Below, piece by piece: positions 5,641 to 35,121 of a stretch of 45,951 nt of DNA. This DNA comes from a virus. The notes below the pieces were generated by a model. The model was not told the origin of the DNA, made no database searches, and saw only the letters and a program-made list of their open reading frames with translations. The first letter of the stretch is position 1; each line of letters starts with the position of its first letter. Location of the stretch: IMG/VR virus record IMGVR_UViG_3300045988_098044, one strand, 5' to 3'. The position numbers and the translations under genes were made by a program.

Positions 5641-5704
5641 ACTTTAATCCTTTCTTTATTGTTTTGTTATGTATATAGTACGGTGGATTCCTCACGGAGT
5701 CCGT

Positions 5705-5778
5705 GGAAGTATAACTCAGTTGGTCAGAGTAGTCGGCTCATAACCGACCTGTCACAGGTTCGAGTCCTGTTGCTTCCA
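5705..5778 (+). tRNA. tRNA with anticodon CAU (Met, or Ile2 if lysidine-modified)
   Basis: Hand-folded cloverleaf. Acceptor GGAAGTA/TGCTTCC, D stem ACTC/GAGT, anticodon arm GTCGG-CTCATAA-CCGAC, T arm ACAGG-TTCGAGT-CCTGT, discriminator A. Total 74 nt. Confidence 0.85.
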
Positions 5779-5907
5779 TTTGCTCACTGTTGTGAGCATG
5801 AGAAATCATTTTTGAATTTCCTCAATTTTTTGGTTTAAATTTCATTTTTCAACACGACACCTTTTTTCATCAATTGGTGTTCCCCAATCTTATCCTTATT
5901 GTTCAAA

Positions 5908-11047: not shown

Positions 11048-11551
11048 ATGGCAAATTATGTTGACTATGAATATTACAAAACCCTTTTTGGAGAGAAAGC
11101 AATCCCAGAAGCAGACTTTAATCGTCTGGTCTGGGATTCTTGCAAGAAGATAGATAATGCCACGACTGGTGTTGACAATGTGAAGAAACTTAAGATTGCT
11201 TTCCCAACAGATGAAGATGATGCGGAAGCAGTTAAAAGATGCGTTTGTGAGCTTCTGACGATCGCTTATAAGATTGAACAAGCAGAAGCAAGGATTGAAA
11301 CATCACAAGGCTACATCACATTAGAAGATGGAACTGTGATAAGTAAGCAGGTAGCATCTAAGAGTGCAGGAAACGAGAGTATAAGCTATGTGACTTCCAG
11401 TAACGCAGGTACGGCTACATTGATAGATAAGTGTCTGGCAGACAAAGAAGCACAGAAGCAACTATACGATGATAAGATAAGAGATTATCTGTCTGGCATC
11501 ACTGATGCTAATGGAGTTAACTTGCTGTACATGGGAATATATCCAAGATAA
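11048..11551 (+). CDS. Head-tail connector / head completion protein (putative)
   Basis: Position after the capsid gene; AAAGGAGTG RBS. Confidence 0.55.
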   Translation: MANYVDYEYYKTLFGEKAIPEADFNRLVWDSCKKIDNATTGVDNVKKLKIAFPTDEDDAEAVKRCVCELLTIAYKIEQAEARIETSQGYITLEDGTVISKQVASKSAGNESISYVTSSNAGTATLIDKCLADKEAQKQLYDDKIRDYLSGITDANGVNLLYMGIYPR

Positions 11552-25238: not shown

Positions 25239-25994
25239 ATGGCAAATACGGTAGACAAGCTTCTTACAGTAGCCAAAGGAGAAGTCGGATACTTAGAGAA
25301 GAAAAGCAACAAGAATCTAAACAGCAAGACAAAAAACGCAGGTAGCAACAACTACACTAAGTATGGAGCATACTTTGGCATTAATGGTACCGATGCCTAC
25401 TGGTGTGACATGTTCGTTGATTGGTGTATGGTGCAGGCATACGGCAGGGATGTAGCAAAAAATCTCTTACATGGATTTAGTGCATACACTCCAACATCAG
25501 CACAAAAATTTAAAGACAATGACCAGTGGCATAAAACACCACGGATTGGAGACCAGATTTTCTTCAAGAACTCTCAAAGAATCTGCCACACTGGGATCGT
25601 GTATGCAGTAACTGATGAGATGGTGTTCACGATCGAGGGTAACACAAGCAACGGAGAAGCAGTTATTCCAAATGGTGGTGCAGTGTGCAAGAAGTCTTAT
25701 GCTTTAGGCAATAGTCGTATCGCAGGATATGGACGACCTAAATATGATAACGTAAAAGTATCATACAGCATTGTAAAAAAGAACTCTTCTAAATCTGCGA
25801 TCAAGTGGTTACAGAAGAAGCTAAACGCAAACTGTACATATGCAAATAATCATCCGCTGTCTGTAGATGGTATCTGGGGAACTAAGACATACAAAGCACT
25901 ACAGAAGTATTGGAAACAGTTGGGTTGGAAGACGACAGGAAGTTACGCAGGAAAGAAAACTTGCACAGCTCTGAAAAAAAATAGAAAAAAGTAG
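25239..25994 (+). CDS. Endolysin: CHAP amidase/peptidase domain plus a PG_binding_1-like C-domain
   Basis: Catalytic-type Cys (YWCDMFV) and His (ICHTGIVY). C-terminal LSVDGIWGTKTYKALQ motif. Confidence 0.8.
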   Translation: MANTVDKLLTVAKGEVGYLEKKSNKNLNSKTKNAGSNNYTKYGAYFGINGTDAYWCDMFVDWCMVQAYGRDVAKNLLHGFSAYTPTSAQKFKDNDQWHKTPRIGDQIFFKNSQRICHTGIVYAVTDEMVFTIEGNTSNGEAVIPNGGAVCKKSYALGNSRIAGYGRPKYDNVKVSYSIVKKNSSKSAIKWLQKKLNANCTYANNHPLSVDGIWGTKTYKALQKYWKQLGWKTTGSYAGKKTCTALKKNRKK

Positions 25995-26111
25995 TTGCAA
26001 TGTCGAAAATGATGTGATATTATAATCATCGTTGGTTACGAAATGTTCCATTTTCGTTCCAACCAAAATTAAAGACAATTGAGTTTATGCGGTTTGAGAG
26101 CATTTTGACCC

Positions 26112-26158
26112 CTTGACTTTTAATCAAGTTGTCCGGGGTTCGAATCCCCGCACGCTCA
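26112..26158 (+). other. attP core: 3' 47 nt of a tRNA-Lys(UUU) (anticodon arm, variable loop, T arm, 3' acceptor strand, discriminator)
   Basis: CTTGA-CTTTTAA-TCAAG / TTGTC / CGGGG-TTCGAAT-CCCCG / CACGCTC-A. No 5' acceptor strand or D arm upstream. Adjacent to the integrase gene. Confidence 0.75.
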
Positions 26159-26166
26159 CTAAAAAA

Positions 26167-26200
26167 GCACGGTTGCCAAATGGCTAAATACCGTGCTTTT
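26167..26200 (+). terminator. Intrinsic (bidirectional-type) terminator: GCACGGT / ACCGTGC, A-run upstream and TTTT downstream
   Basis: 7-bp stem with a 16-nt loop; lies directly after the tRNA fragment. Confidence 0.6.
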
Positions 26201-26331
26201 CTTGTATTTATGCGGTTTTTAAGGGTATGACCTGTCTAAAAATCATACTCTTAAAAGTAATCGAAAGTATCTAAAGTTTAGGGAAGTATTTGTTCCATCC
26301 GTGTTCCATGTTCCATCTGTATTCCAGAAAT

Positions 26332-27510
26332 CTAAGATACCATTTCATTTAGTTGTTCCATTTTTCGTTCCATAGGTTGTTCCACTTTTTGTTCCAAATT
26401 TAAGGCATCATTTACAGCGGATATGCTATCTTCTTTTTCTAACATTAAGTGATTGTATACTTCTAACACAACCTTTTCAGAATCCCCTACAAGACGTGCG
26501 ATCATCTTTATAGAAATCTTAGGAAACTGGTAGCATAAGTTTGTGCAGTAATTGTGGCGGAAGATGTGGCTTGTTAAATCCTCAATAGGACTTTCACTGA
26601 CCGCCTGCATTGCTTTTATGATTCTACCCCACATCCTGCGGAAACCAGATTTTGTCATAGGTTTGTAATCACGATTTATGAATAAGTATTTCCTGCCATC
26701 TTTTCTAAGTTGTTTTATGTAACTAGAGATTGTATCGAATACGTTATCTGGTAACGGTAATGTTCTTTCTCCGTTCTGTATGTTTTTTACTGTTTTTTTC
26801 TTTGGTATGTTGTCTGATATGTCGTGTGATTTGTCGATAGATACTGTATGTGCTTCTAGGTCAAAGTCTGCTTCTGTTAGTGCTAAGGCTTCTCCACACC
26901 GCAACCCACAGCCGTAAATGATATAGACATATATTTTATCCATTAAATTAAAATCTGCCTTAAAAACGGCTTTCTGTTCGTCTGGTGTCAATGGACGTTT
27001 TTCTTTTGCTTTATAATTTATAGTTTCAAAATTGTTGAATATATCTGCAAATGATTGTGCGGAATAAATGCGATCACAGACAGCAGAGTGTAAGACCTGC
27101 TTAAATGTCATAACTATTTGTTGTTGTGTCCGTGATTTGCCTTTAGCACCGTTCAGAATCAATTGTAAGTGGCTTCGCTGTACATCTTGTAGCTTAACGT
27201 ATTTAATGCTGTCAAAATGGACATTAATCACATTGTCGTACATTTTATTTGTATTGTTAGCTCTGTTAGATTCTTTATATAAGACTTTCCATTGTCTGGC
27301 ATAATCAATAAATAGTATATCGGTGTCAACCATTGCTTGCCGTTGGTCTCTTAGTTGTTCATATTCTTTTACTTTCTTTTCGAGGTCCTTAGAGCTTTTA
27401 GCGGACCGCAGGTGTTTATATCTCTTCTTTCCATTATCCTTGTATGTGCCATCCCACACGTTAGTAGAATAGTAACCGTCTTTACCTTTTTTAAATTTAG
27501 CTGTTGCCAT
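26332..27510 (-). CDS. int: Tyrosine integrase
   Basis: 392 aa. C-terminal catalytic region with HIFRHNY.. and ..VLEVYNHL. AAGGAGTG RBS. Adjacent to attP. Confidence 0.9.
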   Translation of the reverse strand: MATAKFKKGKDGYYSTNVWDGTYKDNGKKRYKHLRSAKSSKDLEKKVKEYEQLRDQRQAMVDTDILFIDYARQWKVLYKESNRANNTNKMYDNVINVHFDSIKYVKLQDVQRSHLQLILNGAKGKSRTQQQIVMTFKQVLHSAVCDRIYSAQSFADIFNNFETINYKAKEKRPLTPDEQKAVFKADFNLMDKIYVYIIYGCGLRCGEALALTEADFDLEAHTVSIDKSHDISDNIPKKKTVKNIQNGERTLPLPDNVFDTISSYIKQLRKDGRKYLFINRDYKPMTKSGFRRMWGRIIKAMQAVSESPIEDLTSHIFRHNYCTNLCYQFPKISIKMIARLVGDSEKVVLEVYNHLMLEKEDSISAVNDALNLEQKVEQPMERKMEQLNEMVS

Positions 27511-27833: not shown

Positions 27834-28649
27834 TTATTTAACTTCCCAAGATTTACCGCAGTCTTGGCAAATTGCCATTTGTTTACTGTTAATATCTGTC
27901 TTAGATGATTTCTTTTCTTTGTATTTAGACTTTTTAGGTGTTAATGCCCACAGACCGCCCGTCGCTGCGATCATACCTGCACGCCCCAGACTGTTACCTG
28001 CACGAGTAACGACACTTTTCTTTCTCACTTCGGCTTTACCTTTAGTTTTAGCGGAATCCTGTACAAACTCATATCCTATGTTTAGGCTGTGGCATTTAGG
28101 ACAATATGGTGCATCAAGATAAAATATTTTATAAAAATCTTCGGCTTTTTTGCTGTCTACCTTTTTCAAAATCTCATAGTAAGCATCCCTAGACCTGTCT
28201 TTATCCGCTTTGATTTTGCTTGCATTAAAACCAAAATTACCGTTAAATTTACGCATTTCATAATCATAAGTTAACTGATTAATAGCATCATTTGTATAAT
28301 CAAGTTTGACAATAATATCTTCTTTTGGATTCTCTTCTGCCTTATCAAAACGGCATAAATAGAAGCTGTCTTTTGCTACATAAAGTATATGTGTTAATGT
28401 AGAAAGAAAACCACTATCTGTATATTTACCTGCTGTGATAATTAAATCACTAGGTTCATTAACAATACCTTTTTCTATAGCAATCTCAATCGTTTTTTCA
28501 TCAATTTCATACTGCGGAACTTCATTATCATCAGTAGAAATAGTAGCTAATTCTTTTAATATTTCCTCTGTTGGGCATCCACAATTTGGGCAAGCAGAAG
28601 CTTTTTCAGAGAACTCTTTCCCACATTCAGTACAAGTTATTAATGCCAT
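27834..28649 (-). CDS. Double zinc-ribbon protein with a central globular domain and a C-proximal hydrophobic segment; function unknown (lysogeny-module moron)
   Basis: CTECGK..CPNCGC at the N-terminus. CPKC..CQDCGK at the C-terminus. Strong AAGGAGGGA RBS. Confidence 0.75.
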   Translation of the reverse strand: MALITCTECGKEFSEKASACPNCGCPTEEILKELATISTDDNEVPQYEIDEKTIEIAIEKGIVNEPSDLIITAGKYTDSGFLSTLTHILYVAKDSFYLCRFDKAEENPKEDIIVKLDYTNDAINQLTYDYEMRKFNGNFGFNASKIKADKDRSRDAYYEILKKVDSKKAEDFYKIFYLDAPYCPKCHSLNIGYEFVQDSAKTKGKAEVRKKSVVTRAGNSLGRAGMIAATGGLWALTPKKSKYKEKKSSKTDINSKQMAICQDCGKSWEVK

Positions 28650-28730: not shown

Positions 28731-28848
28731 TTTATGCGGTTTGTAAGACTTTTTGCATAGTAGTATGACAGGCAAATGACAGGCAAACATCAATCAACTA
28801 TGCATTTCCTTTTTTAAAAGTCCAAGAAACCACGGTTTTATGCGGTTT
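28731..28848 (+). repeat. Two further exact TTTATGCGGTTT copies (28731..28742 and 28837..28848), each preceded by CCACGGT
   Basis: Read directly. They lie in the 386-bp intergenic region upstream of the zinc-ribbon gene, which also carries a TGACAGGCAAA tandem at 28766..28787. Confidence 0.8.
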
Positions 28849-29487: not shown

Positions 29488-29871
29488 TCACTTCTTTTTC
29501 TGTTCAAGAAATATAAGTGACATTTCATATTGAGCTAATATTGCGTCAAGAGATTCATCATCAAGTTTTTCCCCATCGTAGTAGATAGGGTGTCTAGTCC
29601 TGTTTTTAAGTAAATCTCTCATTCTCTCCAGTTCGTCTTTGATGTCTATTACACTGTTATCTTTTTCTTTTTTATCCTCCTCCTTTCCTGTCATGAGGTA
29701 ATCAACTGTTACACCGAAAAAATCGGCAATCTTCTGTAACTTTTTGATGCCTGGTTTACTTCTACCAACTTTCCAATCAGAAAAAGTTGACTTAGAAACG
29801 CTAGCTTCTCTTGCTACATCAGAATCTTTCAGACCTCTTTCGTCACGCAGTTTTTGATAAATTTCGTACAT
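29488..29871 (-). CDS. XRE-family (CI-like) repressor; start refined to ATG 29871
   Basis: HTH segment DVAREASVSKSTFSDWKVGRSKP. The longer track start (29925) would overlap the TTGACA of the rightward promoter. Confidence 0.8.
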   Translation of the reverse strand: MYEIYQKLRDERGLKDSDVAREASVSKSTFSDWKVGRSKPGIKKLQKIADFFGVTVDYLMTGKEEDKKEKDNSVIDIKDELERMRDLLKNRTRHPIYYDGEKLDDESLDAILAQYEMSLIFLEQKKK

Positions 29872-29918
29872 AAAGCACCGCCTTTTTAAAAAAAGTTCCA
29901 AAATCCGTACAAAAACTA

Positions 29919-29947
29919 TTGACAAGTTCTAGAATCCGAATTATAAT
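29919..29947 (+). promoter_or_regulatory. Rightward early promoter, perfect consensus: TTGACA, 17-nt spacer, TATAAT
   Basis: Read directly; lies upstream of the cro-like gene. Confidence 0.7.
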
Positions 29948-29957
29948 ATAACCATAA

Positions 29958-30060
29958 GTTCGGAAAAAAGAACAGCCATTGGTAAGTTCTTGTTATGATT
30001 TTTCTTTACATTTCATATTATAACTGATTTCCGAACTAAAATCAATAGAAACGTTCGGAA
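29958..30060. promoter_or_regulatory. Candidate operators: 8-mer GTTCGGAA at 29958 and 30053, and its reverse complement TTCCGAAC at 30029
   Basis: Three copies within 103 bp between the divergently coded repressor and cro-like genes; degenerate TCCGAA at 29935. Confidence 0.5.
30017..30045 (-). promoter_or_regulatory. Leftward promoter candidate for the repressor: TTGATT, 17-nt spacer, TATAAT
   Basis: Reverse complement read directly. It faces the rightward promoter, with about 56 bp between the predicted start sites. Confidence 0.45.
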
Positions 30061-30070
30061 AGGAGTAAAT

Positions 30071-30265
30071 ATGTATAAAAAATATTGTGCGTTAAGGGAC
30101 AAAAGGAATCTGACAGATTACAGAGTGTCAGAAGATACAGGAATTGTAAGGTCTACGTTTACGGATTGGAAAACAGGAAGAAGTAAACCGGGCATCAAAA
30201 AGTTAAAGGCATTAGCTGATTACTTTGGGGTAACAGTAGATTATTTCTTAGAGGAGAGTGAGTAG
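30071..30265 (+). CDS. Cro-like XRE HTH protein (paralogous to the repressor N-domain)
   Basis: STFTDWKTGRSKPGIKKLKALADYFGVTVDYF compared with the repressor's STFSDWKVGRSKPGIKKLQKIADFFGVTVDYL. AAAGGAG RBS. Confidence 0.8.
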   Translation: MYKKYCALRDKRNLTDYRVSEDTGIVRSTFTDWKTGRSKPGIKKLKALADYFGVTVDYFLEESE

Positions 30266-30403
30266 TGAAGAAAAAGAAAATGAGAAAGCTATCAAGGACA
30301 GCATGAACAACACAGGAAAGAAGCTTAGAAGATAGCAGAAAAGAGGGTGTATATGAATTTTGATGATTTGTTCTATTACCTAAATTACGGCAGAACGAGA
30401 AAA

Positions 30404-34335: not shown

Positions 34336-35121
34336 ATGATGCAAATAAACATAAATACAGACTGGGAATGGTATGAAAACACAAATGTATTTAGATTGTT
34401 TTATCATTGCCTACTACATACAAATTTAGAGGACAAGCGGTACTGCGGAAAAGAGATAAAGGCAGGACAATTTGTATCTTCGATAACAAGAATCAGTGCA
34501 GAGACAGGATTAACAGAATCGCAGGTCCGAACAGCACTAAAGAAACTAAAGGACACTGGGTATTTATCCACAAAAAGCACAAATAAATACACGATATACA
34601 CAGTTTTCGACTACGAAAAGTACATAGATTGTGGACAAGTTGTAGAAGCAACTGCCAAGGTTGAAAATGGAACAAAAATGGAACAACCAGTGGAACGAAA
34701 AATGGAACAAACAGACAAAAACGCAAAGAAAAATTGCGAGAAATCAAAAGAAAATTGCGAGAAGTCAAACAAAAAAGCATTCATTGATTGCTTTGAAAAG
34801 CTCTGGAAACAGTACCCGAATAAACGTGGTAAGGGGCAGGTATCCGATGCAAAGAAAAAGACTCTGTATGAGATAGGAGAAGAAAAAATAGAAAGAGCCT
34901 TGAAAAGGTATCTGGATGATTTATCTAAGGACAGTAGTTGGAGAAAACCACAGAACGGAAGTACATTCTTTAATTCTGGTTACGTGGATTATCTGGACGA
35001 GAACTACGAGAAACCACCAGAACCGAAGCCACAGCGGAATCCTGCAAGTGTCTTAGAGTGCGAGAGAGACTATGACTTTGATGATTTAGAAATGCAGTTA
35101 CTACATAAGCAATTAGAGTAA
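34336..35121 (+). CDS. Replication initiator / replisome organizer (winged-helix N-domain, DnaD-like C-domain)
   Basis: C-terminal FEKLWKQYPNKRGKG...ALKRYL...W.KPQNGSTFFNSGY pattern is typical of phage replication proteins; iterons lie in the linker. Confidence 0.65.
   Translation: MMQININTDWEWYENTNVFRLFYHCLLHTNLEDKRYCGKEIKAGQFVSSITRISAETGLTESQVRTALKKLKDTGYLSTKSTNKYTIYTVFDYEKYIDCGQVVEATAKVENGTKMEQPVERKMEQTDKNAKKNCEKSKENCEKSNKKAFIDCFEKLWKQYPNKRGKGQVSDAKKKTLYEIGEEKIERALKRYLDDLSKDSSWRKPQNGSTFFNSGYVDYLDENYEKPPEPKPQRNPASVLECERDYDFDDLEMQLLHKQLE
34668..34769 (+). repeat. Ori-like repeats: 4x TGGAAC (34668, 34679, 34691, 34703) and 2x AAAATTGCGAGAA(A/G)TCAAA (34730 and 34751)
   Basis: Read directly; spacings of 11-12 nt and 21 nt; located in the inter-domain linker of the replication gene. 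Confidence 0.7.

Follow-up and report, generated by a model that had tools for sequence, protein, structure and literature searches.

The complete temperate phage genome held in the IMG/VR virus record IMGVR_UViG_3300045988_098044 (45,951 nucleotides (nt), 37% GC; hereafter the window) raises the question of why one hexamer, TGGAAC (GTTCCA on the opposite strand), is arrayed at regular spacing both around the phage attachment site (attP) and the 3' end of the integrase gene (int) and, kilobases away, inside the replication-initiator gene (rep). The genome is in its attP form, and its gene order runs from the terminase and structural genes through the lysin gene (25239-25994), attP, int (26332-27510, minus strand), the lysogeny module, ERF and RusA to rep (34336-35121). 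An earlier interpretation made from the letters alone (the sequence-only reading) had offered a choice, in which the hexamers were either origin iterons, with a second array coupling replication to the attP/int region, or recombination arm sites that had been copied into the replication gene. We consider it likely that each of these applies to one array, while neither covers both: the attP hexamers would be arm-type sites of the integrase (Int), the rep hexamers would be origin iterons of the initiator (Rep), and the two arrays, both built on TGGAAC, would be linked by sequence exchange. The split is preferred because each array sits where its own gene family has repeats, and because the attP arrays persist in phages without this Rep.

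Two hexamer arrays with a shared block

On the plus strand, GTTCCA starts at 26045, 26056, 26292, 26303, 26310, 26355, 26367, 26379 and 26391, with the variant ATTCCA at 26321, and in the rep linker TGGAAC starts at 34668, 34679, 34691 and 34703. The ten attP/int hexamers all have one orientation, two of them lying to the left of a core derived from tRNA-Lys and eight to its right; they differ from the core sequence and occupy both attP arms within a few hundred base pairs (bp). On the lysin side of the core, the P arm carries a pair of putative Int arm-type sites (26045..26061, minus strand, where it reads TGGAACgaaaaTGGAACa) at 11-nt spacing. The P' arm carries a non-coding, core-proximal cluster (26292..26326, minus strand; family D4), in which GTTCCA at 26292, 26303 and 26310 and ATTCCA at 26321 follow one another at spacings of 11, 7 and 11 nt, and then an int-proximal block (26355..26396, minus strand) of four TGGAAC at 12-nt spacing, which lies in the last 22 codons of int. 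The array in the Rep linker (34668..34708, plus strand) consists of four TGGAAC at 11-12-12-nt spacing.

Such clustering is far from what shuffled sequence gives. Nine of the 17 GTTCCA copies in the window lie within 352 nt (shuffle maximum 2, 300 shuffles), and the four TGGAAC of rep fall inside 45 nt (shuffle maximum again 2). When TGGAAC-N6-TGGAAC was searched with at most one mismatch, the window gave 6 matches against 0.22 expected by chance, and 5 of the 6 were in the two arrays. The likeness between the arrays also extends beyond the hexamers, in that positions 26353-26389 and the reverse complement of 34674-34710 are identical at 34 of 37 positions without a gap (best of 100 shuffled windows, 26), and one more unit aligns past a 1-nt indel, the spacing being 12-12-12 in int and 11-12-12 in rep. 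The near-identity of the two blocks with a single indel, as first noticed from the sequence, is thus borne out, as are all of the hexamer coordinates and the translations given for the Int C-terminal end (...NLEQKVEQPMERKMEQLNEMVS*) and the Rep linker (...ENGTKMEQPVERKMEQTDKN...), although a quoted string was off by 1 nt. Hexamer units 2-4 have a common reading frame in int and rep, and the first rep hexamer is read in a different frame (AAT GGA ACA).

Conservation and selection at the DNA level

The relatives drawn from IMG/VR comprised 70 loci with this integrase, in clades at 93-99% and ~74% amino-acid identity, and at least 92 loci with this Rep, at 82-98% identity. The phage group is abundant in human-gut metagenomes, and more than 3,000 Rep relatives occur in a large protein collection, where those listed are all at least 84% identical, with no distant ones among them. 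Across ~150 related phage loci the arrays have been kept, every relative examined having them, and 44 loci hold both. As to co-variation of the two arrays, which the sequence-only reading had raised, they do occur together in these 44 loci, but their spacers do not co-vary, and their copy number, which is 2-4 units in each array, changes independently.

In 74 unique sequences of rep and 60 of int, the hexamers themselves are essentially invariant. Among glutamate (Glu) codons, the third position is polymorphic in 0 of 7 cases within the hexamers, as against 27 of 42 for the other Glu codons of both genes (Fisher p = 0.002), and the int array shows free variation in its spacers but not in its hexamers. 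Because the hexamers and their Glu wobble positions are invariant while the int spacers vary, the hexamers are under selection as DNA, not as peptide. This synonymous-site invariance, together with the non-coding copies and the occurrence of hexamers in several frames, upholds the proposal that they form protein-binding arrays at the DNA level and places their similarity beyond the reach of protein-coding constraint, which by itself was rejected as an explanation on these same grounds. Outside the coding sequence, the GTTCCA pair of the P arm is present in all attP-form relatives, and the core-proximal cluster, with 3-4 sites, in all Int clades.

Five loci (L044, L056, L050, L062 and L065) carry an extra hexamer pair in the opposite orientation (GTTCCA in the int sense, 11-nt spacing). 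This pair sits ~110 nt beyond the P-arm pair and near the lysin 3' end (for example at 11591-11602 in L044), a place where the window has only the degenerate TGGAAA/TGGAAG, at 25911 and 25926.

The integrase and its probable arm-type sites

Int (392 amino acids; 26332..27510, minus strand) is made up of ~65 N-terminal residues ahead of the core-binding domain, presumed to be the arm-binding domain, a catalytic domain that extends to about residue 355, and a tail that accounts for the last ~21 residues. The catalytic domain is that of a complete tyrosine recombinase (PF00589, residues 174-355, E = 5.7e-18; PHROG_1 integrase, E = 7e-49), and its nearest solved relative is Tn1549 Int (6EN0, E = 2e-13). 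An AlphaFold single-sequence model of the N-terminal domain shows two long strands and a helix in a beta-beta-alpha layout, with a predicted local distance difference test score (pLDDT) of 68. In prophage-form relatives, the attachment site attR reads lysin gene, GTTCCA pair, tRNA-like segment and then host DNA, and this phage/host junction therefore places the attP core at ~26112-26161 (plus strand), a segment identical to the host tRNA-Lys(UUU) gene from the anticodon stem to its 3' end. In these relatives the P-arm pair remains beside the core in attR. Among genomic relatives, tRNA-Lys(ttt) adjoins int in L153, L154 and L157.

The role of the repeats is best seen in distant Int relatives (38-50% identity) in Lachnospiraceae genomes, which also have tRNA-Lys as target. 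These proteins end at ...ALNF*, ...ALAM* or ...ILAI*, a stop that corresponds to residue ~371 of the window Int, and directly 3' of it stand two pairs of 11-nt-phased direct repeats with other motifs, followed by a hairpin and the tRNA. The motif is TGATAC in L152, GTAGACA in L154, GCGGACA in L155, L156 and L157, and TGACGACA in L159. Clostridium phage phiCs5676-1, a cultured phage of C. scindens with a related integrase module, has the same core as the window and repeats that read TGGACA and TGAGACA; its rep gene is unrelated. Five other motifs are found in Int relatives at the position of the window array, and the motif tracks the ~35 N-terminal residues of Int: the three GCGGACA loci share ...K(R/H)RKRLVS, with an RKRLVS strand, and the three TGGAAC Int clades share DGYYSTNVWDGTYKDNGKK in the N-terminal domain. 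Since the phased repeats of the distant relatives follow the stop, and their motifs differ and track the Int N-terminal domain, we infer that a heterobivalent, Tn916/Tn1549-like integrase targeting tRNA-Lys uses the attP hexamers as arm-type sites. A rule for the whole Int family, by which the arm motif would equal the Rep iteron, was considered and rejected, as no second cluster of their own arm motif was found in the distant Int relatives within the 10 kilobases (kb) searched upstream.

The extra C-terminal tail that the repeat was said to give Int is present as translated. However, because the distant Int relatives stop at ~371, before the arrays, the tail is on this comparison a variable read-through into the first arm cluster, with no conservation as a protein feature. 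With 2 to 4 copies of the hexamer, the Int tails of relatives vary in length and sequence (LEQKVEQPMERKMEQ..., LEQKMEQRKEIAS, LEQPMERKMEQ); in the 74% clade, clade B, the int open reading frame (ORF) continues for ~40 more codons, through the next arm cluster.

Two further repeats were observed. In L152, a Lachnospiraceae metagenome-assembled genome, the int 3' end and its TGATAC arm repeats are duplicated ~400 nt downstream (11099-11125 and 11503-11525), which may be the remnant of a second, tandemly integrated element. In the window, TTTATGCGGTTT occurs in four exact same-strand copies (7 matches with at most one mismatch, 0.27 expected), of which those at 26084-26095 and 26207-26218 flank the attP core, one on each side, and those at 28731-28742 and 28837-28848 lie inside 24-nt repeats (AGAAmCCACGGTTTTATGCGGTTT) upstream of the ORF at 27834-28649 (minus strand). 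Relatives have kept the P-arm copy in attR, and the sequence may be a site for an accessory factor, a directionality factor or a regulator.

The replication gene and its internal array

Rep (261 amino acids; 34336..35121, plus strand) is a replication initiator or replisome organizer with an N-terminal winged-helix domain, a linker and a C-terminal DnaD-like part. It matches PHROG 270, 2514, 186 and 345 (replication initiation, DnaD-like or O-like), and its residues 46-89 give weak Pfam matches of the winged helix-turn-helix type that lie below their cut-offs. In Rep relatives chosen by protein similarity (46-53% N-domain identity; L510-L518), repeats with a period of ~11 nt stand directly after the N-domain (...NYxxYQ...), with motifs that differ, such as six copies of CAAATCACAG, or GGTGGCGAACA, and a purine-rich tract follows the repeats in every Rep-family relative examined. 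In the window this tract (34709..34790, plus strand) is 55% A, 70% AT and 72% purine, compared with 62% AT for the whole rep gene, and is a candidate unwinding region. Because all Rep-family relatives carry ~11-nt-phased repeats after the winged-helix domain and then a purine-rich tract, the rep hexamers would, by homology and by analogy with known in-gene origins, be the origin iterons of this replisome organizer.

TGGAAC itself recurs at this place in other Reps. A pattern scan of IMG/VR for TGGAAC arrays gave mostly unrelated tandem repeats among the matches listed, and also four distant Rep lineages whose linkers carry 4-5 TGGAAC, spaced by 11 nt, at exactly this place (L212, with a locus GC of 54%; L165 and L220, 32-33%; L162, 38.5%). 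The N-domains of these lineages are 24-31% identical to that of the window Rep, and their hexamers are read in all three frames. In the L220 lineage the array is kept in six phages from different samples, and neither a second array nor an Int homologue was found in the sequence searched, up to 10 kb on either side. A universal role for TGGAAC as the Rep-family iteron was rejected, as the protein-selected relatives (46-53%) use other motifs and only the architecture is universal.

Iteron motifs of the Rep family turn over between lineages (L510-L518) around a fixed architecture of N-domain, ~11-nt repeats and purine-rich tract, and this turnover makes a good data set for the recognition code of the winged helix. 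The tract of the window also contains an 18-nt repeat, AAAATTGCGAGAA(A/G)TCA, in two copies (34727-34765) that encode KNCEKS/KENCEKS; relatives have 0, 1 or 2 copies, and the repeat is therefore dispensable.

Independence of the two arrays

A different early region is carried by several phages of Int clades B and C (the contigs of L046, L050, L056, L060 and L062-L064, seen as L280-L288), with anti-repressors, an SbcC-like protein, RecT, another replisome organizer and a DnaC-like loader. These phages keep the full 4+4+2 TGGAAC layout of attP, and no other TGGAAC cluster was found in the ~20 kb from int through their replication genes; likewise, no iterons were found inside the alternative replisome organizer of L282. 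Because the attP arrays are retained in phages with a different replication module, they are independent of this Rep. Together with the TGGAAC-type Rep lineages described above, this means that the two array systems are separable under module swaps and that neither needs the other. Contigs that seemed to lack int were considered as examples of the same Rep with another integrase and rejected, being prophages trimmed at one of their ends in which the P-arm pair and the core are still found at attR.

Sequence exchange between the rep linker and the int 3' end

The int and rep blocks have their spacers (aaaaa / aaccag / gaaaaa) and their 12-nt period in common, and the other TGGAAC-type Reps have neither. 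In addition, the int tails of L015, L027 and L039 carry the flank that follows the array in rep, AACGCAAAGAAA (12 nt exact, 0 of 300 shuffles), and that of L043 carries CAGAAGAAAA from the same flank (10 nt, 9 of 300 shuffles). From the 34/37 identity and the presence of rep flank in the int tails of relatives, it follows that the shared block is a genuine copy and that sequence exchange links the two arrays. Since the flank found in int tails belongs to the Rep-family purine tract, the rep linker was most likely the donor and the int 3' end the recipient, probably on more than one occasion, which is the opposite of the earlier suggestion that arm sites were copied into rep. The int-proximal block of the window is without the A-rich tract.

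A permutation test of spacer co-variation within genomes was negative, the block of the same genome differing by 2.63 mismatches and those of other genomes by 2.72 (p ~0.28). The spacers do not co-vary and there is therefore no sign of continuous homogenisation; ongoing concerted evolution of the two blocks was rejected on this test.

A proposed mechanism and competing explanations

In the mechanism that we propose, the ten hexamers between 26045 and 26396 would serve as arm-type sites, two on the P arm and four plus four on the P' arm, to which the Int N-terminal domain would bind, bridging the arms to the core in the intasome. The int ORF would have lost the usual stop of its family and so read through the int-proximal block, with the C-terminal tail as a by-product. 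The four rep hexamers would constitute the replication origin, where the winged-helix domain of the initiator would bind phased iterons within its own gene, and the int-proximal four-unit block would descend from the rep linker, or have undergone repeated conversion to its sequence, through ectopic recombination of the two TGGAAC arrays. Because the two blocks are nearly identical, binding of Int and Rep to each other's sites is physically likely, and such cross-binding is predicted.

Several points weigh against this proposal. An identical hexamer for two unrelated DNA-binding domains is an unlikely coincidence if it has no function. For the arm-binding fold (a three-stranded sheet plus a helix), a Pfam search of the Int N-terminal domain gave no match, and Foldseek found no match to the model of this domain at E < 0.5, with AP2/ERF (1gcc) appearing only at E = 5. 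On the side of Rep, the closer relatives use motifs other than TGGAAC, and the more distant lineages that do use it were selected by the TGGAAC-array scan, which gives no frequency for the family. No phage combining this Rep with another integrase was found, and selection on the rep array independently of Int is visible solely through family-wide positional homology.

The otherwise unexplained coincidence of motif speaks for a functional coupling, in which the shared motif would be selected since Int and Rep compete or cooperate on common sites: Int on the origin iterons would damp replication at lysogenisation, and Rep on the P' block would occlude Int in lytic growth. As the 34/37 identity includes the spacers, a protein recognising one block should recognise the other; moreover, both arrays are conserved in the 44 loci that hold both, and exchange between the blocks seems recurrent. 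However, the Int module has its arrays even where this Rep is missing, TGGAAC-type Reps lack such an Int or a second array, and neither the spacers within genomes (2.63 versus 2.72 mismatches, p ~0.28) nor the copy numbers vary together. We regard such a coupling as possible, though doubtful, and give the same weight to a DNA-level interlock of lysis and lysogeny, in which Int and Rep, each on the sites of the other, would make replication initiation and integration mutually exclusive, and which gene conversion recurring between the linker of rep and the 3' end of int would maintain.

Another explanation takes its model from phage SPP1, where gp38 binds direct repeats in both oriL, inside gene 38, and the distant oriR, and where collision of a fork with gp38 at oriR has been proposed as the trigger of the theta-to-sigma switch (PMC6316719). 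By this model the int-proximal block would not be an Int site but a second Rep-binding locus like oriR. It would act either as an auxiliary origin or, with Rep bound, as a fork barrier setting off the theta-to-sigma switch. In favour of this, the block does appear to come from the rep linker, and in some relatives it has part of the linker's flank as well. Nevertheless, phages of Int clade C and some of clade B, whose replisome organizer is a different one and which have no TGGAAC origin, still possess the block with its hexamers unchanged, and this retention without Rep argues against a purely oriR-like role; the window copy is without the A-rich tract, other TGGAAC-type Rep lineages are without a second array, and the block forms one series with hexamers to either side of the core, in an arrangement like that of the attP sites of other members of the Int family. 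We therefore think a second initiator site improbable at this position.

The weakest candidate, in which the similarity would result from protein coding, with selection acting on the MEQ-type peptide repeats, or from low-complexity A-rich sequence, and the hexamers would have no part in DNA binding, could appeal to the common frame and similar peptides of units 2-4 in the two genes, but it is hardly credible given that six hexamers are non-coding, that the first rep hexamer is in another frame, that distant Reps read TGGAAC in all three, that Glu wobble positions are invariant in the hexamers and polymorphic elsewhere, and that Int tails vary in length and sequence in a family that normally stops ahead of the array.

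Relation to known systems

Arm-type sites are known from heterobivalent tyrosine integrases, and examples include P1-P2 and P'1-P'3 of lambda Int, the DR2 repeats of Tn916 Int and P1-P7 of mycobacteriophage L5. The attP hexamers of the window resemble these in being short direct repeats on both sides of a tRNA-gene core, spread over ~350 bp and abutting the int 3' end, and in having a motif that changes with the N-terminal domain among Int relatives. Unlike the arm sites of lambda, Tn916 and L5, those of the window number ten and all face one way, the int ORF reads through four of them that lie within it, and their motif and a 45-nt block match the putative origin iterons of the phage itself.

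For the initiator array, the closest parallels are origins that lie within initiator genes. The lambda origin (ori) lies in gene O, and its iterons are ~19 bp long. Like lambda ori and SPP1 oriL, the window has phased direct repeats in the linker of the initiator, between the N-terminal DNA-binding and the C-terminal domains, followed by an A-rich tract, and in its Rep family this architecture is conserved with lineage-specific motifs. In contrast to lambda ori, the repeat core of the window is only 6 nt with an 11-12-nt period, and Rep has only remote similarity to the O-like and DnaD-like families (PHROG matches). Like SPP1 with its oriL and oriR, the window has a second copy of the initiator-gene iterons kilobases away, but here the second copy coincides with an attP arm, persists without its cognate Rep and is without an unwinding tract.

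Arm-type sites and in-gene origin iterons are thus each textbook features, and a full-text literature search found no paper treating the two together, so that within the scope of this search an attP arm with the sequence of the phage's own putative origin is new. Here the prediction is that two unrelated DNA-binding domains, the Int N-terminal domain and the winged-helix domain of the initiator, share a 45-bp target. The case also documents the turnover of arm-site and iteron motifs alongside their proteins, the extension of an ORF through binding sites without consequence, and the swapping of sequence between short repeat arrays within one genome.

Other features of the window

Between the attP core and the P' arm lies a GC-rich hairpin with A and T runs on either side (AAAAAAGCACGGT...ACCGTGCTTTTCTT; 26162..26205), which was recognised by inspection of the sequence; a simple hairpin scan gave no match there because its loop exceeds 8 nt. 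Analogous hairpins occupy the equivalent place in distant Int relatives, and that of the window is a probable bidirectional terminator serving int and the lysis operon.

Farther from the arrays, a phage-encoded tRNA-Met (CAT) lies at 5704-5779, amid the morphogenesis genes. In the lysogeny region, operator-like palindromes TCCGAAy...rTTCGGA are found at 29935-29966 and 30030-30061, between a divergently oriented repressor gene (29488-29925, minus strand) and a cro-like gene (30071-30265, plus strand), and this switch region is spanned by a 130-nt inverted repeat of 70% identity (29662-29791 versus 30151-30280).

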